DNA of 60,549 nt, the filler included, from Sphacelaria rigidula (lineage: Eukaryota), in NCBI GenBank assembly GCA_964200075.2. It is 6 parts of 6 records of this genome, joined end to end, with 100 filler letters (N's around TTAATTAATTAA, not from the genome) between each part and the next. Parts side by side here need not be neighbours in the genome. Positions count along the whole stretch, not along the records: positions 1 to 10,011 come from CAXNAA020007325.1; 5 more parts are not named here. The stretch is one strand, 5' to 3'. Numbering within the stretch: the stretch's first letter is position 1; each line of letters starts with the position of its first letter. The notes under the pieces are model-generated. The model was not told where the DNA came from, did not search any database, and saw nothing but the letters and a program-made list of their open reading frames with translations. Of this stretch, positions 1 to 55,100 are shown piece after piece. Position numbers and translations under genes: made by a program.

Positions 1-70
1 GCATTGGAGGGATATGAGGTCAATGGTCGTATGACTATGGCATGCATGATCATGAGTACACCCCCCCTTT
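1..70 (+). repeat. Family-B structured repeat, partial copy at contig edge
   Basis: GGGATATGAGGTCAATGGTCGTATGACTATGGCATGCATGATCATGAGTACACCCCCCC matches the copies at 458-545, 33141-33220 and 58088-58177. Confidence 0.8.
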
Positions 71-239
71 GAGGGTTGGCGTTGGTTGGCAACGACGCTG
101 TTGAAAACCAGGATACGATTTTGCTTTTCCCCTCGCTTTTTTGGCGGTAACCACGGTGGTGGTCGAGCCAGATCATATTGTGTGGGGTGGGAGAACCTCA
201 ACTCCGCACAAAGAGGATGATCGTACCACGTGGTGATCA

Positions 240-545
240 CATGGTGAGACAGCCATTAGATAGTGTGTAACTCGTGGCTGTCTCTGGAAGTGGCAATACC
301 AGAGAATGAAGCAACTCATTCGAGGCTGTAATGCATGTGCAAGATAATTCGTACGCTTCGGGCCAACACCATCTTAGCACTGTGCAGCTCACCCTTCATG
401 CGACTCACCCAACATACTACGGTCCTTCCGGCTTGGTGACTGCGAGCCCGGTCCGGCGAAAACCGGGCGTGCTCTGTCCCGGCTTCGTAGGGATACGAGG
501 TCAATGGTCATATGACTGCGGAATGCAAGATCATGGGTACATCTC
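240..545 (+). repeat. Family-B structured repeat, near-full ~300-nt copy
   Basis: Colinear similarity by eye with 57885-58177 (same strand) and 57288-57617 (opposite strand), e.g. GAAAACCGGGCGTGCTCTGTCCCGGCTT and CTCACCCTT. Confidence 0.8.
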
Positions 546-1579
546 CCTCATGGTCTGTAGAGCTGTAGAAGGCTAGCTTATCCCTGCTCGCCTGAAGCCA
601 CACAAATTTGTGCAATCAGAAAACCATCACTAGCAGGTGGAAAATGACGGGCTGAAGTTACATTGTCCAACACGCCTCGTCGTGAGAACGAGATGCGCAC
701 TCGTTTGGGTATCATGACGCAGTTCCGCAGAGAATGTGTTGGCGTATACCCCAAGGCAGCACATGGAAATCCGCTGTGAAATGAGGGCGCTTCCAAGACT
801 GATCGGTATAAAAAATACACCATGCTACAAACAGTCTTGCGAGCCCCCCTCTCCCGCCGCCCCCGCGCCTCCCTTCCTTTTCGAAAGGATGAGTTTCTCG
901 TCAGGTAAAATAGAGGACTGCTCGACCTCTTAAGGCATCGCAACGTGGACTTGATATCGTTTGCCTAATTTCCCTCTTACGGTGGGCATATTGTGCCAGC
1001 CAGCCCCTTCCTCCCCATCTTGAAACAGATGCAGATACAGATACATAAAGCCCCAACAACGTATACATGAGAAAACATTTTACGGAGTCACATGGAAGAA
1101 ATAGTGTCATGTACACGAGAATCGTTTTGCTTTCAGTCCTCAATACCCATGTATTCGGGCATGTAACTTTTCCATCGGCGTTGACTGCTTATGTGACGAC
1201 CAGGAAATCCGGAAGTCATCGAAGCATCTCTGCTCATCATGGTGAGGTGAGGAAGCCCATGGCAGGGAGGGTTCAACACGTGAATCCTGAGCAGGACAGG
1301 GTGGTTTCACGTCTGCATGTTGTTCGCATCTCGCAAGTGATCCCACGGTGCGGACATCGCGAACAAGCTTAAATGGGCAAAAAAGGACTGGGACCGTTCT
1401 TGATTTCGATGCAATCGCGCGGTGAGTGTTTCTGCGCAGAGTATTTCTCGAAGATGAACCCAATTACAGCGAAAGCTGCGGGGAACAGTGATTGAGATCG
1501 CAAAGAAGGCGCGCTGTGAGAGAATGAGCATCCGCGTATCGGCACCTTCGTCTTGGCAACTGCCCAACGGTGAGTGTTG

Positions 1580-2026
1580 TCTCTTAAACCGTCACAAAAG
1601 TTAGTCGTGGGGGTTCGATCCCCATCACTGTCACTCCGAGGAGGGCGACTCCCCTTGCCAGCGTTCTATCGACTGCAATCAGGACCTCTACTGTTGTCAC
1701 TCTCACCGTACCCTAGAGTTACTTGTCTCCCCCTCTCATTTCCAGAGTGTGTGCACTGGGGTTCCAAGTAGTACACTCCAAATATAGCCACCAGGCTATA
1801 CCCGACCCTTTTTCTTTTGGGCCAATGTTAACAGAGGTTTTCTCTCCTTGGGACCAATTTTTTATCAGAGGTTTTATCTCCCCTTTTTCTTCAAAGAACG
1901 TGCGTCCGACGGGAATCGAACCAGCGACTAACTTTTGTGACGGTTTAAGAGACAACCAACTAGACTACTGACCGAGTCAGCACTGACTCGGTCAGTAGTC
2001 TAGTTGGCTGTCTCTTAAACCGTCAC
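1580..2026. mobile_element. Terminally redundant ~431-nt tRNA-like palindromic insertion with a 7-bp target-site duplication
   Basis: AGTGTTG flanks it at 1573-1579 and 2027-2033. TCTCTTAAACCGTCACA is directly repeated at 1580-1596 and 2011-2027. A 45-bp palindrome lies at 1936-1980/1983-2027. Box A-like TAGTCTAGTTGG and box B GGTTCGAT(T)CCC motifs occur on both strands. Confidence 0.8.
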
Positions 2027-2260
2027 AGTGTTGAGGCAAAACGGCGATAGGCGTTGGCTTCGATGAGGGCCAGCGTTCGCTGTACGATTTCAGACGGTAT
2101 GGCTGGTGCATGGTGTGCTTCCGAGTAGGACACGGGCCGTACTGCGCCATCTGCCAATTGAATCTAGCCTCATAATTATGCGGTGGCGGCCACAAACAGA
2201 AATCCAGCTCCATCGACAACCGAAAAAAAAGCGAGAGGAGCCCTCATGGTGCACTAGTAC

Positions 2261-2470
2261 CGTCTTCATAGCCCTCGAGAAGCTGTTCCTTTTTTCAAGT
2301 CTAGCGTCCTTCAACATCTGACCCAGCATGGCTGCCATCGCCGCCGGAAGAAGCGACGAATATACGCCTCTCTTCCCCGAGCACACGATCGAACACTTCT
2401 CGCCCTCACTGTTAATCCAAGAAATCAAATATAACACATAATCGGCAAGGTGCAGTAGGCCACTCACCAT
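2261..2470 (-). CDS. Possible 5' exon(s) of an unidentified minus-strand gene
   Basis: ATG|GTGAGT at 2470, and a stretch ...MAAMLGQMLKDARLEKRNSFSRAMKT|GTACTA ending at a donor. No recognisable domain. Confidence 0.25.
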
Positions 2471-2692
2471 ATTTACGAGTGAAACAACGGAAACAATTAC
2501 GCGGGGGTTAACTCAAACGCTGATATCATTCATATACAACACCTGGGTGTTCTTACAGCAATTTCCTGTTCTGTGCTATTCATTGCAATGTAGCGCATTT
2601 CTCACTGCTGTCACTATTTTCACGGAATCGCGCCGTCCGAACGAAGACATTTTGACCTGCAGCCGGATCCCTCCGCGAAATAGATCATCGCC

Positions 2693-4498
2693 CTATTGAA
2701 ACAGCGGGTATTGCTTTTCTTCGCTGTGCGCCCGAAGAACCCGAGGGTCGACATCCAGTACCCATTTGCCTGTCTCCCTGCTCTCGTTTCTTGGCAGCAC
2801 GGACGTCGCAACCACTGCCAATCCCCCGTCTGCAGGGAGAAGAGACTCAAGCCGCCCATGACTCGATCTCCATCGCCCACCCGCGGTGCGAGTCGTCGGC
2901 GCAAGTCGCGACCGCCCTTCGGCTCGCCCCCCACGCAATTGCACATCTTCCGCCCATCTCGGCCAATTTGGCAAGCTCGTGCGAGGCCGTCGAGAGTCGG
3001 GAGAAGCGGGAGGATTAGCAACGGCAGCAATGCTCTTTATCAAGAGGTCAGATCGTCGTCTGTGTTCAAGACTTTCTGCCAGAGCTGTGATCGGCAACGA
3101 AGAACGCCGCCTTGTGCTTAGGTATTTTAAACTATTTGTTATCGATGTAGTGTCGTCTGATGAATGACTATGGTCTTCGACACCGCCAGAGCTCGCTGTA
3201 CCAGACATGGTGGTAACACCAGCTGACACTCGTCTACTCAGATGTCTGGAGGACGGAGTCGTCGCATTACCGCTTCCTGCAGATACTATTTTGGCAGATA
3301 CCATTTTTGATTCGCCTTCTTCAGGGCTAGGTGTCCCCACCCAGCCGGCAGCCGTTCCCGTGACGGCCGGGATTGTTGGCGCTTCGATCGAGCTTGGTAC
3401 AGGTAGTAGCTGTCTCAGTGGTCGAACTATGCTGCCGCTAGCGGACGGCCTGCGTATTTTTGTTCCTGGCGATGACGTAGATCTATTTTTGGTGCTGTTG
3501 TCGGCTAGGCTTCCTTGAGAGGTGCTCACTTGGGCATCATCGCCACCAACGACATCACCATACACCGGCCTGGTGCTCGGTTTTGAGTTGCCTCCTCCCT
3601 CCGTACGTTGATGCGCCCCATATGCTACCGCCGTCGCGCTGCTCGACATCTCGCCTTCTTCATGGCAGGAAGTTGCGAGTCCTTGATTATCGGGGTCCTC
3701 GAAAGTTGGCGTGGGTGGATACGTCGGGAGTTGTTTGCCTATCACCAGTGCAGGTGGTGAAGACGACCTAGAGCGTTGAATGTGATGGGTACCCACCGTC
3801 TCCTCTCGCAACGCACTCGCTGTTGATTCAAGCAATAGTGGTCGATGGGAGGTACCACCATCCCCTAGACCCTCGTGAACCGCTGGTCTCTCGCTGCATT
3901 GCCTTGGAAGGTTCGTTTGACGGTTGATCGCTGCTGTCACGACCCTTGATCGATTTGACGATTCTATCACGTTCGACGACCTACGCGTGAGGTCGGCAAC
4001 CTTCACCACCTTCTCCGTCAGGGATACTCTCGTATTCGTTCTGTCTATTGACGCACCACGGCCGTCCTGGTACCTCCCGCTGCTATCTTGTGTACTGCCT
4101 ACGTCATGTCTTGCCAGACTTGAATCACGTGTCACCAGCGACAAGTCATGGCGAATTCGCGACGAGAGAGTCGAATTGTTTCTACCGGCATCACCATCAG
4201 CGTTCCTGGGCAGACTCTCACCACCAATACCCCCTTCTTCTCCCAGAGCACACATTTCTGGCCGATACCCAGCGTCGTTGACCCTTCTTCCTACGGCGGT
4301 GGCGGCAGTGGAAACGTCATCTTCATCTTCCCCTCGTCCAGCAATATCCACGAAGTTGGAGGTCGATGTTTCTTGGTGGAACGCTGACAGACTCCTAGGG
4401 GTGCCGCTATTTCCGCCCGTCGATCCCTCATTACTACAGCGTTCATCACCGCGACTATCACGGCGCCGGCGGACAAGGTAATCCCGATGTTTCCGCGC
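2693..4498 (-). CDS. Terminal exon of a large low-complexity (S/R/G/T-rich, probably disordered) hypothetical protein
   Basis: Acceptor GACAG|GCG at 4498, open frame ARKHRDYLVRRRRDS...EEKQYPLFQ* to TAG at 2693. Phase-compatible with a small upstream exon near 4643-4716 (...KRDEAEAAE|GT). Confidence 0.7.
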   Translation of the reverse strand, partial: ARKHRDYLVRRRRDSRGDERCSNEGSTGGNSGTPRSLSAFHQETSTSNFVDIAGRGEDEDDVSTAATAVGRRVNDAGYRPEMCALGEEGGIGGESLPRNADGDAGRNNSTLSSRIRHDLSLVTRDSSLARHDVGSTQDSSGRYQDGRGASIDRTNTRVSLTEKVVKVADLTRRSSNVIESSNRSRVVTAAINRQTNLPRQCSERPAVHEGLGDGGTSHRPLLLESTASALREETVGTHHIQRSRSSSPPALVIGKQLPTYPPTPTFEDPDNQGLATSCHEEGEMSSSATAVAYGAHQRTEGGGNSKPSTRPVYGDVVGGDDAQVSTSQGSLADNSTKNRSTSSPGTKIRRPSASGSIVRPLRQLLPVPSSIEAPTIPAVTGTAAGWVGTPSPEEGESKMVSAKIVSAGSGNATTPSSRHLSRRVSAGVTTMSGTASSGGVEDHSHSSDDTTSITNSLKYLSTRRRSSLPITALAESLEHRRRSDLLIKSIAAVANPPASPDSRRPRTSLPNWPRWAEDVQLRGGRAEGRSRLAPTTRTAGGRWRSSHGRLESLLPADGGLAVVATSVLPRNESRETGKWVLDVDPRVLRAHSEEKQYPLFQ

Positions 4499-5007
4499 CT
4501 GTCAGATATTGCGAGGTGTCGGCCCTATGTCAAAAGAGAGCATGAAAACTACGTGGCGATTACAGTACGCCAGTGGGGGTACAGATGTCCACCACTGATG
4601 GGGATTACATGTAAGTTAGCTTTAGTTCATCTTGCCTCGTACCTCGGCAGCTTCCGCTTCGTCTCTTTTCACTTCGCAATAGTTCAGGATTGGTTCCCAG
4701 CCGGGTTCACCGGGACCTGGGACTCTCCAAGGCGGCATGCCCAGGGTGGGCACGTAGTACCGCATCTGCCACGAGTGGGACCGACAAAGCACGGAAATAT
4801 TATTGTCTGGTCGAAGCCATCCGGGCCTATCAACGGTCGCCCCAATGCAAGGAACAAGCTGCTCGTAAAAGGCAAACAAAGATGCGCAGGTGTGTACCAG
4901 GCTTCCCCCCTTTTTCAAAGCCAAGTATAACCCATAGTATGGTGCCACCAGGCCCAAGCCTGCGTTCAACGCTTTGTTCAAAATGATTGAATCTCATCTT
5001 GTTCTAC

Positions 5008-6572
5008 CTGCTTGGGGTCAACGTAGTAGGGTTGTGGTTCTCCACAATTGTCAGTTACTCTGGGCCCCTCCGTCGACGCTTCTCGCCATCCGAAGTAGCT
5101 CGACTCGAGAGCGCCCCCTGAGCGCCACATTGGACGATTGTCTTCACGTTGGTCATTGCGCGACCTGCCTGACGGGAAGCTTGGACGCCTTTCACGATCC
5201 AGAGACTGTAAGTCCGAGTAGTCCCAGCTTGATCTACCCTTGGCCATGGCTTCCGCCCCCGCTGCGAGGGCTCCGGAACCACGCCAAGGGCGTCTATTCT
5301 CGTTATCTACTTCCACCGATGATACACGTGACTGCCGTACCCCCCGATGATATTCTCGATGCTGGTGATCGGCACTGGTGTTGGCTGGGGACGTTCGCGG
5401 ACGTTGAGTTCGTTGAGGCACAGGCAGATGGTACCGCTCGCCGGTGCGATTTTGTCGCTCCATGCTCTCCTCTTTTCCTTGGATGAATTTCCTTTTGTTT
5501 TGCGTATCGTCTTCGTCCCTCTTGTGCGGTTGTCGTCCCAAGCTCTGGTGGGCACTGTACCCACCCTCTTCCGCTCGTTTTCTGTGGTTGTTTTGTCGAG
5601 ACCGACTGGAGCCATCGGCGGTCCGGGGACGTACGGGGTGGTGTACATCATTTACCCATCTATCCCTTTCCATTATTTCCCCCCCCTTTATTCTTGCCGG
5701 TCCCATCGTGGTCGTGTCTAACTGATTGTTTTCCATATCATCAGAACCAGGCTCTCGCCGACCGAGCACATGATCGCCGTCACGAGATGACGCCGGTCGA
5801 GAAGTCCCACAATGCCCACTTTGCCACTGTCGCGTACGGCCGCTATCTTCCCACGGCTCCAGGCACGATTTACCTTTCCTTTTGGTTACGTCAATGGCAT
5901 GAATACCACGGGGGGTACGTTGATCAGACTCTCCTCTTCGATCTACTATTGCCGCTGTGGAGGCCCCTCTTCGCGGGGCATGACCCGAACCTTTTCGCGC
6001 TTCGTTGGTCGTCGACTGAGCACCATGGTGCAACGAGGGTTTGCGACACAGCGTGGCGTCTATTGGCGTGCGCTGGTCGGTCGTGTATGCGTCAGTGTAT
6101 AAATTCACAGGCTCTGAACCCCCGTTGTCGGGGTAGTGGTCGTCGTTTATTCCACTGGATGATCGACCTTGGATTCCGGTGGGCGAGTCGGATGTAGACC
6201 TTGTACGTCTGTGTTGCTGTTTTTCGACTTTCAATTGACTGGACCGTGCCGTTCGAGGTCCGGTGCCCCGGTTCTCATTTTTCTCCTTCGGCTTGCTCGA
6301 CGCCTCGAGCGCTGGCTCGTATCTTCTCGTCCACGCTTCAGAATTGCCTCGCTTTTGTGCACGTGTCTTTGCGGCGCTTGCTTTGCTTTCTGAAGTCCTC
6401 TTCGCCCTATTTCTCGTGACGTTCGCCCTGGTCGGACTACCCGAGCTGTTCAGCTGGTCGTATGAGGGAGGGGGCAAAGCGCGAAGCAGTTCACCGGTAA
6501 CGCGTTTAGGCAGGGAGAGTCGTGGAAACATAGAATCGCTTACGTTAATGGTGTCCAATCCAGTGATCGCAG
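5008..6572 (-). CDS. Internal giant exon of the same hypothetical protein
   Basis: Open frame of more than 520 codons bounded by TGTCAG| (6572) and CAG|GTAGAA (5008); R/S/G/E-rich. Confidence 0.65.
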
Positions 6573-7137
6573 CTGACAGGTAACTACTGCCGGCGCAGAT
6601 TCGAATTTATATCCGAAAGAAAACGTCACGTAGGTTGTGCAGCATATAGCGTTGGGGAGCCCTTCTCAGCTTTACAAGCGGTCGACGACGATGGATGGGA
6701 AAGGTGTTCCCCGTCGTTGTCAGATAACTTGGGATGAAGGGGCCGGCGCCAAGCGTCACATCATCCCGAAGGCTTTGAAAAGGGCGAATTATTCCCTGAA
6801 AATCAACTGTTGCTTTTACTCTGCACGCCCACTGGGAAGACGCCGAACCAGGTCGTCGCCAGGGGTGCTCGCAAGTATAGGGTACGCCGGGAAAACCGTT
6901 CTGTGTTATATCCTGTGCCAGAATCGCAAGCTGTACCATGAACTCTGTAAAAGTTGAGCGCCACCGTTTTCCGCCCACTTTTTGTCGTTTCTGCTCACCC
7001 TTGTATCTGTCTTGGCCAGTGATTTACCCAGGGTACGTCGACGTAATCCGCCGCCACGGTCGAGTCTGTTTAATAATAAACGGCAAGGGACAAGTACATT
7101 TTTTTCCTGTGTGCTTCATTTTTGTGTAGTCCCTCAC

Positions 7138-9956
7138 CTCCTCCGGGGTCGCGACGCTGCGGCTTGTTTCAGACGTCGTAGCCTCGTAGGCTTTCTTGAG
7201 GGTGGCTAAGGTCGCATCCTCAGCACCAGCGAGTGCCTGCCGGACCTCGGCGAGGGCAACATCGTATCGAGCCCCGCCGTCTGCTTCCACTATTCTATGG
7301 GCGAAAAGTTTCGCTAGCTCGTCGCCGGAACCCCGTGGTTTATCGACTGTTGACAGTCCCCCTTTACGCTCTGCAGCAACCATCGTTTTCTGTCCTTGGG
7401 TAATTTCATCGTTTTTCTCGTTCAGGGAAGTGGTATTCGAGACTGGGTCTGTCACTACACCGGCCCGTGATTCGCCTTCTCCCAATCCATCTACTGCAGG
7501 TAAAAGTGCTCCCGTCCCGATCTGTCTCCCATCCGTGGTTTCCTTCCCGTCAATGATGTGGTCGGGAAGATCTTCGTTGCAAGTTTCGATGACATGTGTA
7601 AGTGGGGCGACTAGCTCTCTTTCATTACTTCCTATACCAGTGTTTTGTTCAATTTGCGCTGGCAGCGCGGTTTTTTCTAAAGGGAGTCGGTCGTCAGCAT
7701 CGTCCGCCGCCCTCGTCGAGAAGGGCCTGTGGAACATTCTCCCGCCTGTACGTGGGCTCTGAAGAGGCTCAGCTCGGTTACCGTCCTTCTCGCAACTCTT
7801 TGCATACCCTTTGCCAACAGCGCTCTCACCTCCTTGTTTTGCGACTGTGTCGTTTTCTTGGTTTGGCGCAGTTTCGAGCGGCGGAACGTTTTCCTGTGGG
7901 CCTACTACACTGGCGAGAAGATCCAACCCGTGATGTTCTGCCCGAGGAGACCATGTAGAATCGAATCTTCGTGTATCCGAGGATGTGCTCTTAGCTGGGA
8001 GATGCGGTTTAAGTATCCCGACAGCATAACCCCCACGGCTTGTACGTGCATCTTGAGCATCGCTTGTCTCGGCGCATTTCCAGTTGTTTACACCACACCG
8101 TTCGACCTCTTCGGTCGCACGGAATTCCCCGTGCCCGTCTGCCCCCCACGCCCGTTCACCATTTTCCAAGGGACCACGTGACCACGGTGTTGATGCTGGC
8201 ATAGGTAAAATGTCGCCACTCATTTCCGGGTCTGTTGGCTGATGTTGTTGCGACCACCGCTTAACTCTACCAGCTATCCTCTCGCCTTGCGGCTGTACGC
8301 TCATTTCAATCACCACAGGGCTCTCCTGTCCCTCATCATTACGGTCGGACGGGGACCCAGAAGCCGTACCAATTTTGCTGAAGTGTGACTGTGTCCGAGG
8401 CCGTGCTAAGTTCAACACATCATCATCCCCGAGAGGGGACGACAGAACGGAGTGCTGTCGCCTGTGCCGGCTGCTTGTTGTTTCTTCTTTCTGTCCAGTT
8501 CCTGTAAATTTATCCTCTCGCTCAGCGTCATAAGCAACAGGTCTGGCTCGCTCGTTGTGATCGCCGAGGAACGATTGTAGCTGCGGTATCGGTGTCTCAA
8601 GTAAAAGCCTTTCATCTTGACCGTCCGTTGATTGTTTAGGGTGGTTTACATTGGAGAAGGCCTTGTGTTCGGAGGGTAGCTCGTGGCGAATATTATCGGC
8701 TTGATCAGTAGACCTGGATAACCCATTTGGATCGAAGGGACCATCAAGGGCGTCGTTGCTCGATGAAAGCGGAACAGCATCAGTTACACTCCCCAGACCC
8801 TCTAGGTCAGGTTGGTCCGCTGATGGAATCGCTGGCGCAGAAGGATCAACGCGTGCTGCAGTCGTGTGAGCTCTAGCGTTGTCTGCTCGGCCCAAACGTG
8901 TATCACCAGGCACACCGATTTCGCTACCTACCTCGGCTCTCATCGTACCTGAGCTGCCGTTGCCGACCTCACGGTGTATCCCACCGGTCTCGAGAGACGC
9001 TGCCCATGGTCCAACGCTGGCAGCGGCTAAATCATGACGACTCAGCGCTCTCTCTTTGTCACCGTCGACTTGTGGAAAGCTACGGGAGCCTTGCTTCTTG
9101 TCTAAGCTTGGAAGTGCGTTAGCGTCACTTGTCACAACAATGTGCGAAGATCTAGCCGCCAGATTGACTGATTCACGGCTGTGGCCTCTTGCAGCCCTGC
9201 ATGGGTATTCGTGCCTTTCTCCCCTCTCCACGCCACTGATCAACTCTCTCTCATTTGTCTGCGATTGGTTAGTCGTACCTTCGACGGCTACGCCTGCAAC
9301 CCCGACAAATAACGGCTCGGCAGATGTATGACATTTGCAGTGGGGAATGTTCGCGTTTCCACTCGTGGGCTCGCCTCGCAAGACCTCGCCTTGCACTACT
9401 TCGTCCGCATCAACGGGCTCACCACTACCAAACGACGGCGGGCAGGCATCGTTTTGAGACGTTTTACTTGACGCCCCCGGTATTGCGGATCCACGATCAT
9501 TAAGCAAGGTGGTCTTTCTGCCGATCCTTTCACCACTGTTTCGGGAGCTTGTATCAAATACACCTTCGACCGCAGGAGTAGTAACATCAGCAGCTGGGGG
9601 ATAGTTTGCGTCGTCCTCGACCGCTGATGACAGCAGGTTATACTCGCGGTGCTCCGAGATAGGCCTCTCGTGGTCGAATGATAAGGTCGATATGACTCGC
9701 TTCGCTGTTGTTGTGGCTACTCTCGAGGTTGCGGTACTCTGATCGTCGCAGCGATCACCTTCGACGTTCGCTAGGTCGAGTGCAACGAGACTTCTGTGCC
9801 TCGGGGAAACATGTGCTCCTCGATCGAGATAAGGTTGCTGTTTTGCGCCACCGACTGACGCTTCTTCTGCCCAAGTGGGCGACTCGACATGTGGCTCGGT
9901 GTGAAAAACGCCATCCATCGTTATCTTGTGCTTCGCTAAAACCGCGCGGAGTTGAG
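7138..9956 (-). CDS. Internal giant exon (~940 codons) of the same hypothetical protein; 5' part lies off the contig
   Basis: Acceptor TTCAG| at 9956 (QLRAVLAKHKITMDG...), donor GAG|GTGAGG at 7138. Ends in a helical-looking segment LAKLFAHRIVEADGGARYDVALAEVRQAL. Phases require at least one unresolved small exon between this and the next exon. Confidence 0.7.
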
Positions 9957-10011
9957 CTGAATAACCACAAGCGTAGGGTGCCGTGCGTGTAGGTAAGAAG
10001 TTAGGAGGGGG

Positions 10012-10111
10012 NNNNNNNNNNNNNNNNNNNNNNNNNNNNNNNNNNNNNNNNNNNNTTAATTAATTAANNNNNNNNNNNNNNNNNNNNNNNNNNNNNNNNN
10101 NNNNNNNNNNN
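10012..10111. other. Artificial contig spacer (N-TTAATTAATTAA-N)
   Basis: 100-nt block of Ns containing a six-frame stop linker. Confidence 0.99.
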
Positions 10112-10235
10112 ATCGCAAGACGACTATCATGCGCGCGAATTGAAGTCAGTACACAACCGGACAAAATCGGCGGTGGGACGGAATGGCTACACATGACAAG
10201 CCCCGAACGCCGGGTGTCGGTGAACTCTCTGCCTA

Positions 10236-13200
10236 TCACTCGTCATCATCTCCGACATGCATATCTTCATCCCCCACGTCCTCTACAGCGTTTTGTGCTT
10301 GTGTAGTTTCTGCAATAGCGGGCCACACATGATGCGGGAGTTTCGTGGTCGAAGGAAGCTTTGCGAATTTGCAGCTTATCGCTGCAACGTGCTCGAAGGA
10401 AATCGAGCGTACCCGCTTCCCGTCCACCATGCGAAACTCGAGGGTCCACCCTCCTCTTCCATATGTCGACCGCGGTGCGTTCGCAACTACCTTCTTTGGC
10501 ATGTACCATTGAAGTTCTACCTCGTCTCCATCTACCCCCTTTTTCATGGATAAAATTTGCCCGACACAGACCGACACCGGCGAGCTACTCGGCTGCGAAA
10601 AAGCAACAAACTCTCCAACCTCCACCCTGAATAGCGGCCCCGGCGTTCTACTCCGGCCGCGCCTCCCCTCTCCCCCTCCTTGTGGTACAGAGGAATCTCC
10701 AGTCGCTACTGCACTCCCTGCGATTCTGTCCCCCACCGTGGAAGACGGATCGCTCCTCACTCCAAGAGTCCGAGTGGTATCATCCGTGCTGTCATGTGTA
10801 CTTGAGCCCGAAGCCCCCCCACCATCACCTGTGTCGTCGTTTGACTCGGGCCTACTATACAGGGACAGATTCCAGTCGAAAGGAACAGGCGTTGACTTCC
10901 CGACGTCGATAACGCTTGACGCCAGTTCCGACATCAACGCCTGGTGATATTGGTTCGCCGACAACCCCTCCGGCAGCTCATCTGTGTTATTAGACGGTAT
11001 ATTGGCGTATAGTACGGTGCGTGCAGCCTCCATTAGCGATGAGATGGGAAAGCACTGTCATATCGACAACAACCATCCTGCGGGTGATTCACGGGAGTTC
11101 GTGTACGAAACGGAGCGCGAACATCCATAACTCGAGGTAGATGGCCTGTGCCGGATGGTCCGCCGCACATACATGATGGTCCGGATGGTCCCTCTTTCGA
11201 CCATTGTGAAAACCGGTGCCTACACACATCTATAGCAGGCACGACAACGGCATCTATTTTCGCACTACCTTGACGCATGGCACCGATCAACTGGGCCAGG
11301 TCATGACTGAGACTTCTCGGTGGGGGGGGGGGGTGCTCGAGTGATGCTTCGCCAAGATCACCCGTGGAATATCCAGTGGCCGTACAGACACCATCGTAGT
11401 TGAGATGCTCACACTCACCGACGCTGTGGCAGTAAGTCTCGATCCGTCGCTCGGAAGCCTCGATGCACAAGCGGTGCTGTTTCAGGGTGTGGTCGTCCAC
11501 CACTTTCCGTGGGTGATCAGGTGTATCCCGCAGGTCAGGCCAGCTCTTCATGATGGCCATGTACCCCTCGCTGTACTCGCCGTTCCTTTTTTTCCAAGCA
11601 TCACAAACGAGCGGACGGCCACGGTTTGCACTGATAATATTAATTATGCTCCTTGCTCAACCCTTCCTCACCGGTCCATCTCTTTCGATCCTCCAAGAGC
11701 AACCGCGACCACTTGTGGAAGAAAACCTGAAGAATCTACGAACATGAGTATATTTCAATCCTCTCATCCTATCCTGTTTGGCGCACCTGTTGATCACACC
11801 CCAGTCATCCCTGTAGCTTCTTTCCTGTACTTGCATCTTGACTACGCCGTCCGTAGGATCTCTCGACACCTTGAACGCCTGCGGCTTCGTTACAGAGGGA
11901 ATCGGATACATGCAGCCGACGAGAAGGTCCCGGATATTCGCACAGTTGTTCAAGTGCGTGAGGCCGACGTGGAAGTTGGGTTGGCCCGCCCTGTAGGACT
12001 CCAAGACACGTTGACCGAGAAGGGTCCGAGTTGCGGCGTCCGTCTTCTTGAGACCGGCTCCCACCCTATCCGTCAGAAACAAATGTAATAGTCCGGGAAC
12101 TGCACGTATGAGAATGTCTTCCCCAAACATTATCCTCGAGGTTACCTTGGGAACTGTTCAAAGATGCCATGCTGTCACATTCTCTAGACGCAAGGTGACG
12201 CAAGCCTCTCCGCTTGGAACATGGGGATGTACAAAATAGGTGCGGATTTTTTTTTGGGTACCTGCGCTTCAAACATTCGTGTCCATGCCCAATGTTCGAA
12301 ACATGGTCCCATTTCTATGGTTCCATTACTTCACCTACTGGTCGCTTCCGACAACAACTACCGCCATACCAAATTGGGTTCCAAAAACCGAAACGTTGGG
12401 GTCCCAGATGTAAAAAATCAGATCCGGGGTCTTTCGCCGATCCGACCAGACGCTGAAACGAGTGTTTCATCTGGGACCCCAACGTTTCGGTGTTCGAATT
12501 CCAAATTTGTGTGGCGTGTTGTGGTTGTCAGTAGCTACCAGTAGGTGAAGACATGGAACAAGATTTCAAGCGTGTGAGGACACGAAGATTGTGATGGACC
12601 TGGCGCCAATATCCAGCCAAAAAACCATATCCCGGGTGTACAGTTCCGTCTTTTGGGTGAAAACAGTACAGGGAAGACTCCCCTTACGTGATGAAGACGT
12701 CATATATCTCTTTATTTCTGCCGGCGCCAATACCCCACGAAAACCTCTACCCCATTTCTAAAACTCCGTGTTGTGGGTGAAAACTCACTACAGCATGGCG
12801 AGACCCCCTACCTGGAGAAGACCTGGTCTATCTCTGAACAGGTCAAAGGCGCCAGCATCGACGCGCGCATGTCATCCACCAGCCAGCGCCCATCACAGCA
12901 TACGCAGTTGCGGGGATTAACGTTGTTTTCGCGTTGCGCGGAGGGTGGTCGAGGGCGTGGGGTAGAAGTACACGTAAGAATAAAGGACGTGTAGGTCACA
13001 AAAAACACTGCGTGCTACTCTACGGATTCGGCGACTCAGGCGGTGAGACTGATGCCGACATAGCCCCCTCACAAAATCTGCGCCGCAAACCGTCCGTCGA
13101 AACGGCTGTGATCCCACTCTTGGGTTCGTTTGCAGCAACTTCGCCCACATGAGAGGTGTGTAGCAGCCGGAAATCAGCTTGATTTGCCCAAATTAGTCAC

Positions 13201-16200
13201 ATTGTGCAGTACTAAACAAGCTCGCCCGGCATTTCTCATCATCGACTCTGCGCACTTTTTTGGCCGCTTGGGGGGTGGGGGTATATCTCGGCAGCAGTCG
13301 TGACTGGTATCCACGGAGGGGGGAAACTTCCGCCTCATTGCCCTTTGCATCGCGAGGTCTCACCGTCGTGGGTGTGACCCTTCAGCCCGAAGTGCAGTTC
13401 GATGAAGTCGAAGAGACCATAGTACACCAGGAGGTGCAAGAATGCGAGGAAGATCCGGTTCTTGTTCTCCCTTTTCGGCAAATGAAAGGTCCATCGTGCG
13501 CGGGGCGAGGGGGATTAGTGCGATCGTGGTGTCGGTATGAGCATGTACCAACCCCCGGTCTCTCTCACCCCCCACCTCACACGTATCATTCTTCCACCTT
13601 GAACAGTTGTCCATCTGCAGGTGCAGAGCTCGAGGGAGTGTCTTGCCTTCTTTGAGACTGTCCATTATCTCCGTTAGCGTGGCGTGGAGGACTTGGATGG
13701 TGAGATTCGACCCTGATTTCACGCGGAATCGAAGACAAAATGCCAGTTACAGCGCCCTTGGTAAGAGCAAGGCGTCGCCGCTAATGTTTGCTCGAAGTGT
13801 GGTGGTCCGTGGTGTCACGGGCTGGGAGCAGTGACCACGTAATGGTCGACGCACAGTCTGGTCGATATATGGGCAGAATTTCACGCCACCTTCTCCTCAG
13901 TGCCCCCGCCCTCCCCCCGGAACCCCCTCCCTCTTTTTTAAGTAGGGGGGGGTACTGACTATCTTTTCTCTAACCATCATGCGCAGTTCAGGCGAATGCG
14001 AGGAGTTGCGTGTATGTCGGGGTCCACTTTTTGTCTCACCTGATTCCCAATTCGAACCCAGCGTGTAGAACATGCACATCCTGCCGCTCACGAGAGCGCC
14101 TATGAGTTTCAGTCTCATCTGCGACGTTGCAGGCGCGGGAAGCGATGTATTAGATACTGGGTTATATTATATAACGCTGCCGGCCCACATCTCCCGACCC
14201 CCCCCAAAAAAACATCCCTACTTAGCCTATATCGCCACGTCGTCACAACGACGTCTTTCGATTGAAATCGGGTCAAAGCCACCACAACACAGATGCGCGA
14301 TCATCCTCACTTCTAGATTGGCCTCCCGCACGATCACTGATGCAGTGCATCAATTTGGACGTACCGTCTCTTCATTGGCTGGAAACTTTTACCTTCGCTA
14401 TTACGCCACGCGGTAACTGAGTCGTTGCACACCATGTCTTCTCGGAAGATTTGTTTACTACAGCGTATTACCTTCAACCCTTTGCTTGTGTCTTTGGTCT
14501 CCTGTCTGAAGTACGGTGTGGCGTAGCTTGACTGGTCGCTCCCGTCGATCGCGATGCACAGCAACTCGTCCGGAGCAGCCTTCGCACGTGTCTTCGCTGC
14601 CATATACACCCCTCGCGACCTTTTCACATCCTGGAGAAGGTTGCGGCCAAACCATGTAGCACATTACGCGGCCGGACAAATAAGCATCTGTCATGTTACC
14701 ACGCGTCGTCATCTCGGGGTCACGACTGCATACGCACAGCTTCAATGACGCAGACCCAACCGTAGTCGGCCGTCAAAGCGCATTCGAATGTGTCACCATG
14801 GGGCAGCAGCGCCGTCGTGCACAGTGGGGAGTTGCACCCACCCACGTGCTAGGCGAAATTCAGTGAGGCCTTGCCATGGGCATCGTTTCAAATCTCTCAC
14901 GAATATCAACAACCTACAGGCTCGTCCCTGCCATTTCAGCTTCCCCGCCCGCCCGCCGCAACACCTTTCCCCCGATACAAGCAGGGTTACATCATCACGT
15001 ACGACATTTCCCAGATCGGTAAAAAAACGCCACACGTGCACACCTCGTAGTGGTCTCGGAGATGAAGTTTTATATCCGCCATTTCCTCCGTGAGCCACCC
15101 CGATCCTCCCTTTCTGCGCTGTACATCGAGGCTCTCGTTAGCAATAGTGCAAACATCGCATTTGGTGAAGCGCATGGTTTTTTTCAGCTTTATGTGCGGG
15201 CAGTCGTGCTTCCACACCGAGGTGAAGTGTGAGTACTTCGGAGGGGGGCGGCCAGAGGCTTCAACCGCATCAGACGAGCAGAAAATGTTGTACACCATCT
15301 GCAGCGCACATGGAACGGCAAATCGGCGGGAGATAGAGCGTGTAATTACGAAAGTTGCACTCTCGCTCGTAGTACGTCAAACACAGGGTGTTTCGTGCGG
15401 GGGGTGGATTTTGTTTTTGAGGACGTGCGCCGGGATAATTCAAATAATTCGATCCATCAGGGGTGCACGAAGAAAAACTCGCGCACCCACGTCCCGTTTC
15501 TTTGCTTCGGTCCTCTCAGGGGGGGGGGGTAGGATACTAGACCACCCCCCCCCCCTAGGGGGGGTTAGCATTACTCTACTCATAGGTTCCCGCCGGGGGT
15601 GGTCATGTTCGAGGATTGTGTCCGGCGATAACAACCGTCAGGTGAAGCCAAGCCAACCACCTCTCAATAGCACGCAGGTGTTCCCGACGAGAACGAGTCG
15701 TATCTGGCTCTATATACAGGCGAACAAATCGGTACATTCGACTAAGACAAAAACAGAGCGTATATTCTTTTCATTTCGGCCCTACAGGATAGTAGGCGGG
15801 TGGGGTACGCAGGTTTGCGGGATTTGACTTGTCGTGTACCCAGCAATCCACACCAAATTTTCCAATTATGAGACAATTGTTTCGTTTTGTCCATATACTG
15901 GCAGCTACTGGAAATTATCACATTCAATACAAATATCTCACCGTGGCGGACGGATACGACATGTGGATCTCGTTTTTGTCGGGCTGCAGCTCCCAGTTCT
16001 TCGCCATGTCACGTAGCCAGGCCACAATCAGCTGCGCCCCGGTGTTCGTGGCGTCGCGCTTTATCCTGATGTCACGGGGGGGGGGGTGAGGGGGCAGGGA
16101 AGGGGGGCGGGTGGGGACAGGGGACGATGGGGGGCGACTACTACAATTATCGACATCTCACTTGCGTGCTAGTTACAGTGTGCGATAAACGATGGGTCGA

Positions 16201-44400: not shown

Positions 44401-47400
44401 TGGTATCGTTGGTTGGACAAGTACCCCCTAACGGTGTCGACTGTCGTCAAACAAGCTTCCTTCGCCACTCAAATTCTCATGTCGAACGGCGAGAATGAAA
44501 TGCTTCTCCGAAGTAAACGAATGCATCAACCGTGGTTTGAAATGGTGCTTTTCCTCCTTGACTGATTCCTGGTGTACCCATTGAACCACCACACGGGTGG
44601 CCCCTGGGGTACCTGGAAATTCAAAATTGTACGTTACAGACGTTGCACAACGCCTGCAATATCCAATTTTTAAGTTACAGGCACCCCGGGGGCCACCCGT
44701 GCAGGGTATGGCAGTGATTGATTGGCTGAACAAATTGATCAAGTGTCGAACATGAACTGATCCTCAGAAGTCAAGTTGCGGTGACATGATGGACATACCC
44801 GAAATAAACGAAAGCGGAAATGATCGCTACGGGCAGTGAAGAAAACAGAAAGGTTGAACAGACATGAAGAAAAACTGAAAATGGCCGACCTCTGCAACAT
44901 GGCTTCAGGTGGGAAAAGTCTTGGGCAACGGAGCCATGCTACGATAGGGGGGGGGCGTACTCATTTGTTGCTTGCCTTAGTCGTTCCACGATCGACCACA
45001 TCGCTTTCGAGACGGAGCAACGATAGGGGGGGGGGGGGGGGGGGTGATTCCGCGAAAAAATAGGCTCAGATGCGCCAAAAGACCTGGAACACTCGTAGTG
45101 CGCTTGTATTTGGATAAAAGCGGTGTAAGGTAGAATGAATGAGCGTTATATATCGGGGGCGAGCGCCTTCGAACAACTGTTGGCCGCTTCAAACAGCGAT
45201 TGAAGTGGAATTTCGTGGAACCCCCCCTTCCCCCCCCCTTATCGTAGCATGGCTCAACAGCACACACATCCATACTTGATCAAGAAAAAACCCCAAAAGC
45301 CGTGGGAACAGATTACGACTCATCTAGGTTGGCCACACCGTGGGGGTACGAGCTCTCACCCATGAACCCAACGGAAACAAGGCACCATAATGCGACTGGC
45401 ATACAGCGGGAGGAACACACACATATCTAGAGGGATATTGGAAGATATAGAGAGGGAATAGAGAGGGAGACTATAGAAGTATTGAAGCCCAAAGACATCG
45501 TGCAGTAGATCAGGTACAAACACACAAACCAGGGGACGCCGCAAAATTACTGACTGAGGACAAATTAACAACCGATAGGGAAATACAGGGGTATATGAGT
45601 TTCTGTGTTAGCCCTGCTTCCTCCATCCACCGCTAGTCGTGCACAAAGCGAGTTATTTTCACGACCATGTACATCCTGGATTCCTCGAGCGCTGTTGCTG
45701 CTGTTGTGCTAGCGGTGCAAGCTCTCCGATTTGCGACTCTCGATGCAGCAGCCTCTCGTGTGTAGCGGAGGTCCGATTCACGTTTGCCTTCGCGTAGCCA
45801 CGTGTCCTCGACCTCTCCCGCCACTTTCTCGCCCCCAAGATGTCATCCACCCATATTCTTCGTCACAGTGCTACAATATAGCCATGTAATTGATATCTGC
45901 AGCCCATGTGACGATTGTACCATATTTAAAACCTTTACCGGACGGGTGTCTTGTACTCATCATCATATTTTCTCGGGTTCAAATGAACACGGCGGTCAGG
46001 TTCGCATGACCCTCAACGTTCGTTATACCTGTTGACTATCGTGTGCTATGGGATGGTCTTCTTTGACTTGTTCAAAGTGATTCTTTCGAAACCCAATTTA
46101 CTCTGTGGTGACTAGTGCGTGGGGCTTCTAGTGCTGGAGTTTATAGTACTGTGACTTAGCCAGGCAGCACACTGTCAAAGGTCAACCATGATTTTCGTGT
46201 CCAACCGAAGCAGCTAATCCTACGGCCTATTTATTTGGCCACTTTTTTCTCAAACTAGAGAAGTAGTGTACCATCGCGGCTCCCTCTGTCAATGCAACGG
46301 GAACTTCTTGCGTTGAAACGTTTGTAGGTAGGCAATGCCAGATGTTGAGTTAAACAAAAAGAACACCGTTTGCGCGTCCGTCCAGAACATCTACAATAGT
46401 TCAGATGCCTCTTTGCATATGCACGAAGTAGCACGTGTTTATTCGCCGCGCAACTCATGATTTGATTGTATGAATTCCAAACCCATGCACCGATTAGGTC
46501 GTATAAATCGTCACTTCAATTCATATAATCCCATATATTTTCGTTCAAGTTTTGGGGAAAATAGTACGCGACAAAATAGTTCTTGATAGACTGTCTCGCC
46601 GTCAAATCCGATTTTGATGGGCAAGTGAGAATGTTACCTCACCGCCGCACGATATTGTAATGCATGAGAGGACCGCATGCTTAGAGGACCGCATGCTTAG
46701 AGGACCGCATTTGAATTTGAACATCCCTATGGCTGGGGTTAGGGTTAGTGTTAGGGTTAGTGTTGGGGTTAGGGTCAGGGGCGTGGTCCCTTCAGGGACT
46801 GGCCCGATTGGTTTCGAAAAACGTCGATCCTGGGGTGTTTTGGACTACGGCACGATCCTCTAAGCCCGCGGTCCTCTCACGCATTACAATATTTCCAATT
46901 TCGATTTTCGGAATTCCTTAGCTGCATTCACAATTCATTGGATGGGCCCTCTAAGATCAATGTAGACAGGTGATGCCGCAGCAACTCCGAAGCATCGATG
47001 GAGGCATTCCAATGTAGCATCCTTTTCAACCATGAACCAGCGGGAACGGTGTTGAGTTTCCTACCACGCTGATGGAAAGTGTTTCCTCTTGTGGGCATTT
47101 TCCGCTTCACCTGCCTTCGCGTAAATCTCTGCAAGTTTGTGACAGATCTTTTTGTTGCTTCAGCGGGAAACTTCCAGAGGCATGTTTTATCGCCGGGTGA
47201 CGCTGGGTACCTTCCTTTTCTTTTTGGTCAACAATCTTCCGGTGCCCTTCGCTTGGACTTCCACATGCATATTGATATATCGAAAATAACTTTGTACTAC
47301 GACTGGTAATGGTCCTCACGTCATGTTTTCTGCTACCATTTTCACGGCCTGGTTGACTTTGACGGGTAATTTTACCTTTTGCTGTGATCGCGGGTCGGAT

Positions 47401-52153: not shown

Positions 52154-55100
52154 CTGAATCGCCGTCGTTGCAACGTTGGCGTTGAGCCACACGCGAAGCA
52201 TTCGTGCCTCAGCCTCATCCGCACCTCCCGCATAGCCCGGTGCAGATAAATCAACTCCTGCATCCACCCCGCCTTCGGGTATCATGCTCCCAGCGGTATT
52301 GTTGTTGACACCATAATCACCGGCGGTGGGTGTAACTGCAGTCGTAGCTGAAGCTGCTGCAGTGGTGCCGGCGCCAGCTACATTGTTGTTGTTCCCGCCT
52401 CCCTCCGGAGGCACAGATGGTGCCGCTTTTTGTCCTTCGGTTAATGAGATGTCTTGTGTCAAGCTTGCGTTCGAGGCGTTGGTTGCTTGTTTTGCCTGGG
52501 AGGGGATTTGTCCACAAAAAACGTTATTGAAGAAGGTGAGAAGCAGTATGCGCTATTGCTGCGGATAGTGGTATCGGTAATGACAGTACTGATGTCAAGA
52601 CGCCTGGTCAGTTTGTTCAATGTGTGAATAAAAAAAGTAGAAAGTCATAACTGGTAATCACCGCATCCTCCCAGCACGTTTGGTTCCATCCGTGTGTGCT
52701 CACTTACAGTAGTGATTGCTACAGGGGATCGCGGAAGGTAGACAGACAATGATGAGGGAAAGAGAGTGCCTGGCTGGCTATTTATCGTGTTTAACCAGTA
52801 GGGTAGGGCGTTTCTCGCGAACAGTGTCCATGATAAACCGACTGTTTGGGGGAGAACACACGTATACTGCACACGTACAGCGTCATTTCGATTGATGCTG
52901 ATACAATCGAAATTAGTGCACACAAGAAGCCTGCTGTTCTTGTTTCCCACGAGGTCTATAACAATGACGGAAATGGTTGCAGTAGTACCTTCGCCCTCGC
53001 TCGCTTAGCCTGTCGATCTTTAAATTCTTTCGCCTCCTGAGCCTTGATCTGTGCGTCATTCATGAACTGCACAGATCTGCCGTCTCTCGCCCAAAAGTCA
53101 AATCTGCAAGAAAGATGGATAGATAAGGTAGACAGATGAAGAGCAAGATAGACAAGAACAAAGCGTAGTACAGTAGTATCAGGGATAGTAGTGCTCGTAA
53201 AAGTCTACGAGAAATGCTAGCGAAAGCAGCATTATTCGTTAATTTTATGCATCGCGCGACACGTTTGATTGTTTCACATACACTTGAGCTTAACACATAC
53301 AGAAGAGTAAGGCACATACATTCATATTCGAGTAATAAGGCGAGATAACTGTCCTAGTAGAAACCTAAGTCCGTGTGAAAAAATATCCGCACTCCTTCAC
53401 CCCTTAAAGTGCAACGTACCGACCGCGATATGCCCGTACGAAGGGAAAGTTGGTGAGCAGGCAGTTATCCGCGCAGCCCCTGATCGGCAACGGGTAGTGA
53501 CCTCCGTCAGCATCGAAAACGTCGAGCACGCAGGTGAACGACACAGGTTTTGCTGAACGGAAGCTAATTTCCACTGGAATTTTCTCCATTCCTGCCCCCA
53601 GCTGTTTTAGTGTGTGCGCGCGTGTGTGGTTGGGTTTCCAAACCAGAGGCGGAAGCAAAAGGTCGTTCAGGGGTTGTCGCTGTCATGTTGTATGGAGAGC
53701 CCGATGGAGAAGTGACTCGATGAATAGATAGATGCATGATAGAGTAAGACCACGAGTTTTGCTTTCATCAGGCGGGTCCGTTAAAAGAGGCAAGAGTGTA
53801 GTACCCTCTTCGTCTCTTTTTTGTGTTATTGAAAACTTCTTTCAAGTCGACGACTCCGCGCAAATCATTCGAAGCTTTTTCGTCACTCACCACCCTGCCC
53901 CCCCCTACCCTGCGTTCTCTTTCACGTGGGGCTGCGTTACCTGTGCGTATGTTCATGTTTCACGGCGGGGGAAATGAGCCGTTTGACACGCTACAACAAC
54001 ACAGGTATTCCTGCCGACACGAGGTTCGGCTTCACAAGTGCAACAAAACGCAGGTGCGAGATATTACCCGTATTGAAATATGCACATTCTGGGTCCGCTC
54101 GATTTAAGTGAAACCGGTTACTCATTATTCTGCAGGGTACCTGGCAATCGTGGTCCTCGTTTCCTCAGGCGATAGCAAAATAATGAGTTCCAAATCTTGA
54201 CTGCAAAACAAAGTGTCCACGTGCAGAGGACATACGACGGTGCTGTTTGAAATACGAAGACCAATACTGCGCGTATTTTGCATAATGTGCTGCGATGTGA
54301 ATTTGTCCGAGAACCAGATGCGGGCAATATTTTACTTGAAAATAGGTGCACAGGATCAAGTGTCTTTCTTTCTCTGCCTGCACCACTGTAATGTATATGC
54401 GGACCGCGTGCTTTTTGGACCGCGTCGGATTTCAAAACATCCCGGGACTGACGTTTCTCAAGACCGCTCGGGCCAATCCCTGCATGGACCGCGTCCCTGA
54501 TCGTAACCCTAACACTAAGCCTAAGCCAAAGCCTAACCCTAACCCTAACCCTAACCCTAACCATAGGGGTGTTTAAACTCTGATGTGATCCAAAAACCAC
54601 GCGGTCCACAGATGCATTACACCTGTCTCCGTGTCTGTCTGCCGCTACCTCCGGTGTCATCTATCGATTGTTGTATGGCAGTACACCAGTGCTCGTGCCT
54701 ATACATTATCGGGAGGTTGCACGCAACAAGTATCACGTTATATTCAGTACATGTCATAGCACAGCGCCCGTATAGTACATGTATACGCATATGCAGGTAT
54801 ATCGCAGAGACGTATCGGGCGAATCAGAAAACAGAAAAAAAAGCAGGTCCATCTATGGCTTCATCACAGGCCCTTCGGCAACTGTTGCATCATCTCCCGT
54901 TGTTGAAAAAAGAGCTAGATGGCGTTCGTTTCCTTGTATCGACCATGGATCTAATATTGAATATATGCACCCCTGTTTTCTCTTCATCACACATTCGAGC
55001 CCCCCGCGCGCGATCCTTGAGTTGAGTCCATGGTCACAAGGGATCAACAGATCTTACTCCTATACATGCTTTGGAGCTGTCATCAGTCATTGGGTCAGCT

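Follow-up and report, generated by a model that had tools for sequence, protein, structure and literature searches.

In passages of PMC3820591, self-priming is proposed for the RNA polymerase III (Pol III) transcripts of Alu, while parts of two other sources invoke template switches for Penelope-like elements (PLEs) (PMC8557442; PMC11167929). For Ectocarpus, the passages of a curated transposon survey that we cite here mention no tRNA-derived short interspersed element (SINE) and state that a Pol III head could not be assigned to the most abundant short element (PMC12477816). Here, we describe an insertion at positions 1573-2033 of a 60,549-nucleotide stretch of Sphacelaria rigidula DNA (assembly GCA_964200075.2), hereafter the window, which joins six parts, the first (positions 1 to 10,011) coming from CAXNAA020007325.1. 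We tentatively propose, at slightly below even confidence, that the insertion is a copy of an abundant tRNA-like SINE-type retroposon placed by target-primed reverse transcription, and that its palindrome and its 17-nucleotide (nt) terminal redundancy come from a self-annealed Pol III transcript; at the same level of confidence, the minus strand would be the functional sense. The SINE-type identity is held with more confidence than the individual steps of the mechanism. The element may represent the first Pol III-type SINE family described for this algal lineage, and the listings of a literature search contained no description of such a palindrome-tipped tRNA-like family.

Anatomy of the insertion and its predicted transcript

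Read along the plus strand, the insertion consists of the last 17 nt of module a, module b, a body, a reversed copy of the whole unit (b'a'), two bases, and module a again, where module a denotes the 5' half of a tRNA-like unit (45 nt) and module b its 3' half. The heptamer AGTGTTG brackets the whole insertion at 1573-1579 and 2027-2033, without strand, as a first-pass annotation of this DNA had reported; this putative target-site duplication overlaps the element by 4 nt at the left junction and by 1 nt at the right. The last four bases of the left copy, GTTG (1576-1579), equal the element's own bases directly upstream of the repeated 17-mer (1576-1596 compared with 2007-2027, 20 of 21 matching) and are a possible junction microhomology, and the first A of the right copy doubles as the last base of the element. 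By our own estimate, a match of 7 nt between flanks whose boundaries are fixed would arise by chance with a probability of about 1e-4 to 1e-3, but four of the seven bases also match the element's continuation.

The final 17 nt of module a at the left end (1580-1596, plus strand) are identical to 2011-2027 and constitute the terminal redundancy. The shared 17-mer with a period of 431 nt in the first-pass annotation is present, and our repeat search lengthens it to an exact direct repeat of 19 nt (1578-1596 and 2009-2027, spacing 431) that begins with TG and finishes with CA. Module b follows on the plus strand (1597-1640), with a box-B-like GGTTCGATCCC at 1612-1622 and a T-arm-like hairpin. The family body (1641-1907, minus strand) is A-rich in the minus sense, carries six plus-strand runs of at least four T between 1809 and 1888, and includes two 34-nt tandem units (1828-1847 and 1862-1881). 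On the minus strand, 1908-1981 contains the whole tRNA-like unit (a + b), with a box-B-like GGTTCGATTCC at 1912-1922 and the complement of the box-A-like motif at 1956-1967. Beyond the palindrome centre (1981-1982, no strand), which reads CA in this copy, the second copy of module a forms the outer palindrome arm on the plus strand (1983-2027), with the box-A-like TAGTCTAGTTGG itself at 1996-2007.

The palindrome has arms of 45 nt (1936-1980 and 1983-2027) that are complementary at 44 of 45 positions (98%), with 2 nt between them and 92 bases in all, exactly as had been described. The left end also extends the right arm, another early observation that we reproduced: 1576-1607 is complementary to 1925-1956 at 32 of 32 positions, and a wider inner inverted match covers 51 nt at 88%. 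Repeats as long as the direct and inverted ones of this element are far beyond chance, and the hairpin potential of the single strand is strong (-91.5 kcal/mol, z -11.2). A search with blastn at word size 7 found no second copy of the element in the 60-kb window.

Pol III terminates at T runs and initiates about 10-20 nt upstream of box A. T runs occur on both strands, as previously noted, and their distribution is asymmetric: the plus strand has seven runs of at least four T (1809-1813, 1815-1818, 1838-1841, 1858-1863, 1872-1875, 1884-1888, and 1933-1936) as compared to a single one in the minus sense (1599-1596, A4 on the plus strand), which lies exactly at the boundary between modules a and b and is the predicted terminator. 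Because of this asymmetry, full-length Pol III transcription would be possible in the minus sense alone, and the transcription in both polarities that had been suggested is not required, since the minus sense is the only one free of internal Pol III terminators. The predicted minus-sense RNA, with a length of about 385 nt, would begin close to 1981, which lies about 14 nt upstream of the box-A-like motif, and terminate at 1599-1596. This predicted start falls on the palindrome centre, and the base at the arm's outer end (2027) is homologous to 1596 and faces the predicted terminator. When the RNA from 1982 to 1596 is folded (minimum free energy -131.9 kcal/mol, z -3.05), its last 12 nt pair with nt 47-58, while its first 46 nt, corresponding to module a, stay outside the 3'-end helix, which leaves a recessed 3' end on a 46-nt template.

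Recurrence of the element in public sequencing runs

Evidence for a family was drawn from contigs of four public runs (X1, X3, X4, and X6) placed at 80% likeness on positions 1200-2400. A single organism label is common to X1 and X4, X3 is labeled "algae metagenome", and all three are DNA runs; the contigs are short and break inside the repeat, and the counts of loose ends and joints given below are those among the rows listed (510 further loose-end rows and 45 further joints exist). The numbers of contigs placed were 6203 of 7,725,350 records in X1, 4891 of 5,464,531 in X3, and 3443 of 4,333,584 in X4. Summed depth in X1 was 155,010-1,987,631 over 1569-1978 as compared to 66-137 in the flanks, with a peak over the tRNA-like modules. 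In X6, 57 contigs covered 1621-1987 with a depth of up to 990, compared with 2.5 in the flank, and were not used as evidence of expression. The element is a repeat with thousands of copies, dispersed among diverse outer flanks at high depth, its 7-bp duplication being known from the window copy; since the head is more abundant than the body, the head is probably common to other families too. A 17-mer scan of metagenome contigs returned 28 loci, all of them chance matches of at most 31 nt, scans of viral contigs returned three chance loci or none, and scans of prokaryote genome contigs returned no match.

The a' arm continues past 1973 into the same palindrome centre in 83, 77, and 72 contigs of X1, X3, and X4, respectively, and the same continuation at 1972 is found in a further 26, 37, and 11 contigs. 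Because the same centre recurs in 72-83 contigs of each DNA run, the head-to-head junction is a feature of the family and not, as the first-pass annotation had considered, a one-off inversion of this copy. The consensus centre of the other copies is CG instead of the CA in the window, so that in the family the palindrome is perfect and its arms measure 46 nt. Immediately beyond 1936, the sequence is unrelated in 83, 80, and 73 contigs (X1, X3, and X4; agreement 0.36-0.37, with a median loose length of 148-255). The arm thus has a recurrent boundary at its outer end, and the edge at 1936 is equivalent to the edge at 2027 because the palindrome is symmetric. The two arms also change together: the consensus of the contigs that cross the centre lacks both G1974 and its mirror base C1989, the loss at 1989 being found in 41, 38, and 29 contigs of the three runs. 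Such a mirrored loss is expected if one arm was copied from the other.

The number of 34-nt units in the body varies among copies in these contigs. Some copies have one unit fewer (joints from 1848 to 1884, 1885, or 1886, in up to 5 contigs per run) and others one more (joints from 1860 to 1828 and from 1862 to 1831), and the variable region is crossed by contigs spanning 1640-1953.

Proposed origin and competing explanations

We infer Pol III transcription, self-priming, a template switch, and the choice of reverse transcriptase for the origin that we tentatively prefer. Pol III would start near 1981, traverse first the head (1981-1908) and then the A-rich body, and terminate at 1599-1596; at least the last 12 nt of the transcript would then anneal to the middle of its own head, leaving the first 46 nt as a 5' overhang. 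A reverse transcriptase would extend the annealed 3' end as far as the RNA's 5' end, and this run-off would yield a 46-nt DNA tail, a', of fixed length. The nicked plus strand of the target (...GTGTTG-3') could anneal inside a' through GTTG/CAAC (4 nt), which would account for the 4-nt overlap at 1576-1579. Synthesis of complementary DNA would copy 17 nt of a' and then the RNA up to its 5' end, where the enzyme would switch to the neighboring 3' end of the a' tail and recopy it to its end, at 2027. Joining of the second strand, through an overlap of 1 nt, would leave the 7-bp duplication. A single self-annealing route could thus produce the 17-nt redundancy, a palindrome centred on the transcript start, a fixed outer end, mirrored indels, and the 7-bp duplication. 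This mechanism would be close to the self-priming proposal for Alu and to the template switches of PLEs.

If reverse transcription of a self-annealed transcript is indeed the origin, each copy is a fossil record of where the transcript started and stopped, and the copies would likewise preserve a step of self-priming or template switching, long proposed for SINEs but rarely documented in genomes. To our knowledge, self-priming has never been established as the main route of Alu. A clear Pol III-type family would extend the brown-algal transposon catalogue, and perfect 92-bp palindromes, where hundreds of copies exist, disrupt assembly from short reads and may act as fragile sites and give rise to small RNA.

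Several points weigh against the self-annealed transcript. The promoter call rests on two short motifs that resemble the consensus of boxes A and B of Pol III, and such box-like motifs are weak evidence for a tRNA origin of the head, which we presumptively liken to tRNA-Lys. ARAGORN at default settings called no tRNA in the window, and Rfam at E<=10 on both strands of 1300-2300 returned no tRNA or ribozyme family and solely miRNA-family hairpins that are look-alikes of the palindrome. At a relaxed threshold of 80%, ARAGORN calls both tRNA-like units (1554-1634, and 1900-1989 on the minus strand) with inconsistent anticodons. For these three reasons, a tRNA origin is weakly supported; of the two tRNA-type promoters in opposite directions that had been claimed, the box-like motifs are where they were reported, but default ARAGORN and the Rfam tRNA model recognize neither as a tRNA. 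T4 is a weak Pol III terminator, and the left end of the element lies 16-17 nt past it. No partner long interspersed element (LINE), reverse transcriptase, or endonuclease was found among 83 frames of the window compared with Pfam.

The family data carry their own counterweights. All runs consist of contigs without RNA ends, the identity of X6 as RNA is a guess, and the three DNA runs may include the window's own sample and would in that case not be independent. Contigs from the unique flanks reach about 25 nt into the repeat, with the left ends of other copies outside this coverage; ordinary copies without the extra arm likewise lie outside the coverage of the placed contigs. Next to the outer edge, 8-16 nt share a weak consensus that ends in CTGGGACC (X1 and X3) or ATGGGACC (X4). 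The window copy lacks this consensus, which may reflect either a conserved tail of short length or a preference for certain targets, and the proposed mechanism leaves it unexplained.

A related scheme, which we consider possible though rather unlikely, would have the transcript anneal to itself, prime its own extension, and become a nicked "dumbbell" template that is copied for more than one round, so that insertions record the start (the centre) and the terminator (the outer end). It would amount to a self-templating route to SINE copies and would retain part of the earlier idea of more than one unit without invoking a replicon.

We regard as unlikely that the insertion is a left-truncated foldback or terminal inverted repeat (TIR) DNA element of the form a'a b - body - b' a'a, in which both ends would be TGTGACGG...CCGTCACA with a 92-bp palindrome and the tRNA-like motifs would be mere parts of inverted repeats. 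The inner repeats are indeed inverted, over the 51-nt match and its exact 32-nt stretch, yet the left end of the copy (TCTCTT...) and its right end (...GTCACA) do not form an inverted pair, and no transposase with such ends was seen. A Pol III transcript could not pass on a palindrome that lies upstream of its start, whereas transposition as DNA would keep it; on the other hand, the match of centre and edge with the predicted start and stop of Pol III would become accidental, and the mirrored arm indel would require two events or gene conversion. Among the rows listed, the only clearly recurrent edge is the TGTGACGG edge, as expected if both ends are alike. The 7-bp duplication falls inside the 6-7 bp of Dada and near the range of related superfamilies in the passages of PMC3706591, although a truncated copy should not have a matching flanking duplication at all.

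Improbable, in our view, is a non-autonomous element mobilized by a Penelope-like retroelement of the Chlamys type, a machinery that typically leaves pseudo-long terminal repeats (pLTRs), adjoining inverted copies, and short tails. Passages of PMC8557442 describe frequent 5' truncation, partial-tandem pLTRs, an adjoining inverted truncated copy, tails of 30-40 bp, and non-autonomous derivatives, and the part of the Ectocarpus survey that treats Chlamys PLEs counts 4782 copies (PMC12477816). In common with this pattern, the element shows a tandem overlap of small size, a partial copy in inverted orientation, and, in other copies, a possible tail consensus of 8-16 nt; however, the overlap is only 17-19 nt, and the inverted copy of a PLE is truncated at its 5' end with its 3' end outward, while in this element the first 46 nt of the transcription unit are inverted. 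Neither a hammerhead (in the Rfam search of 1300-2300 and as a CTGANGA core) nor, in the frames of the window, a PLE reverse transcriptase was found. The first-pass annotation had likewise seen no hammerhead core.

That annotation took the insertion for slightly more than one unit copied from a circular or concatemeric template that can be transcribed in both polarities; such a replicon, be it RNA or DNA, we find very doubtful. Formally, the copy does equal a 431-nt unit plus 17-19 nt, joining its ends rebuilds a complete tRNA-like unit, the palindrome recurs within the family, and T runs are present on both strands. The replicon itself is not supported: the same ribozyme searches were empty, the seven Pol III stops in the plus sense make a full plus-sense round by Pol III unlikely, and 73-83 contigs of each run show the arm's outer edge at one place rather than at varying ones. 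No junction of a circle or dimer was seen either, in contig data that would not reveal one. Such a fixed end fits the outcome that the annotation had named as telling against its own model. The earlier interpretation as a whole is only partly supported, with a template copied for more than one unit being possible but explained more simply by a self-annealed linear Pol III transcript than by a replicon. Finally, an ordinary SINE copy that was rearranged locally, by inversion or duplication, once it had inserted would suit the single copy in the window. This reading is contradicted by the recurrence of the centre in each DNA run among unrelated outer flanks, and the duplication frames the insertion as a whole.

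Three further schemes were tried for the SINE-type element and rejected. As a long terminal repeat (LTR) element or a terminal-repeat retrotransposon in miniature, it would have a repeat that is far too short (19 nt), and the adjoining module is in tRNA sense rather than forming a primer-binding site. Had the small CTGAC/GTCAG hairpin snapped back, the palindrome centre would lie about 12 nt away from the actual one, and twin priming of the L1 type is at odds with an inverted piece that overlaps the direct one completely.

Host locus and comparison with known systems

A second, diverged form of 1410-1578, with 20 mismatches and 8 gaps over its 169 nt, occurs in X1, X3, and X4 at the depth of a single copy. 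It runs about 1290 nt past 1578 without the repeat, in one contig per run, and a piece of equal depth covers 2061-2142. This version is probably a paralogue of the host locus with a different spacer; its reading as an empty allele was set aside for the paralogue. At the same locus, the 11-mer CGGTGAGTGTT occurs twice, at 1420-1430 and 1568-1578, 148 nt apart; each resembles a 5' splice site, and the second shares bases with the putative target-site duplication.

Elsewhere in the window, a chain of long open frames of 602, 542, 138, 1011, 273, and 207 amino acids lies on the minus strand at 2693-11656, with no Pfam match among the frames scanned. A protein search with the 602-amino-acid frame gave only four relatives, all of them unnamed proteins from sequencing-run assemblies, at 99%, 43%, 39%, and 35% identity. 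The chain looks like a large, lineage-restricted, low-complexity protein gene, interrupted by a run of N at about 10,010-10,059, at the 5' end of the 1011-amino-acid frame (440 N in the window). Two neighboring minus-strand frames match different parts of DUF7869, a domain that we take to belong to KDZ-type transposases: 11660-12157 (E 2.6e-4, below the cut-off) and 13363-13746 (E 7.1e-8, above it). This pair looks like a split or decayed gene. Telomere-type hexamer arrays are found at 46736-46780 (GGGTTA, 7.5 repeats) and 54504-54562 (TAACCC, 9.8 repeats); they are in opposite orientation, about 7.7 kb apart, and interstitial, bracketing a segment.

Several known systems share single traits with the insertion. 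As in DIRS1-type elements, an internal region (1908-1980) is complementary to the sequence made by joining both ends. DIRS elements integrate by a tyrosine recombinase without target duplication and are kilobases long with open reading frames (ORFs); only the logic of the internal complementary region fits, as the element has a 7-bp duplication and its termini are not inverted. Retrozymes and viroid-like circular RNAs are also small non-coding units that can occur as more-than-unit copies, but the hammerhead that defines them was absent in the ribozyme searches of 1300-2300, so that the element is not a retrozyme, and no circular form was seen in the contigs. MITEs (miniature inverted-repeat transposable elements), like foldback elements, share the long inverted repeats and the strong single-strand hairpin potential; as the window copy stands, a MITE or TIR element is rejected on its ends, which are direct and not inverted repeats, although a longer, complete form with inverted ends is conceivable. 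Dada, in passages of PMC3706591, inserts at a fixed site in small-RNA genes with a duplication of 6-7 bp, a length that fits, but the flanks of the element (1400-1579 and 2034-2200) are not tRNA-like by ARAGORN or Rfam, so that a Dada insertion is rejected.

With PLEs, the element has in common more-than-unit copies, adjoining inverted partial copies, and variable duplications, which parts of PMC8557442 place during target-primed reverse transcription. It differs in having neither a hammerhead nor a PLE ORF, in its overlap of only 17-19 nt, and in an inverted piece that represents the 5' end and not the 3' end.

The resemblance to tRNA-derived SINEs extends over a head with box-A-like and box-B-like motifs, a length of a few hundred nucleotides, a body that is rich in A on the sense strand, a T run at the end (the single minus-sense T4, set against the seven plus-strand runs), a very high copy number, and a target-site duplication. 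Unlike these SINEs, the element has a second, inverted copy of the head at its 3' side and an inverted copy of its first 46 nt upstream of the predicted start, and it has no simple A tail or short-repeat tail and no known LINE partner. What it would share with self-priming of Alu is a transcript whose 3' end folds back as a primer, which for Alu, in passages of PMC3820591, means a 3' U run on an internal A run. The predicted duplex of the Sphacelaria element differs in that it would comprise 12 to about 28 bp of exact pairing and copy the first 46 nt alone.

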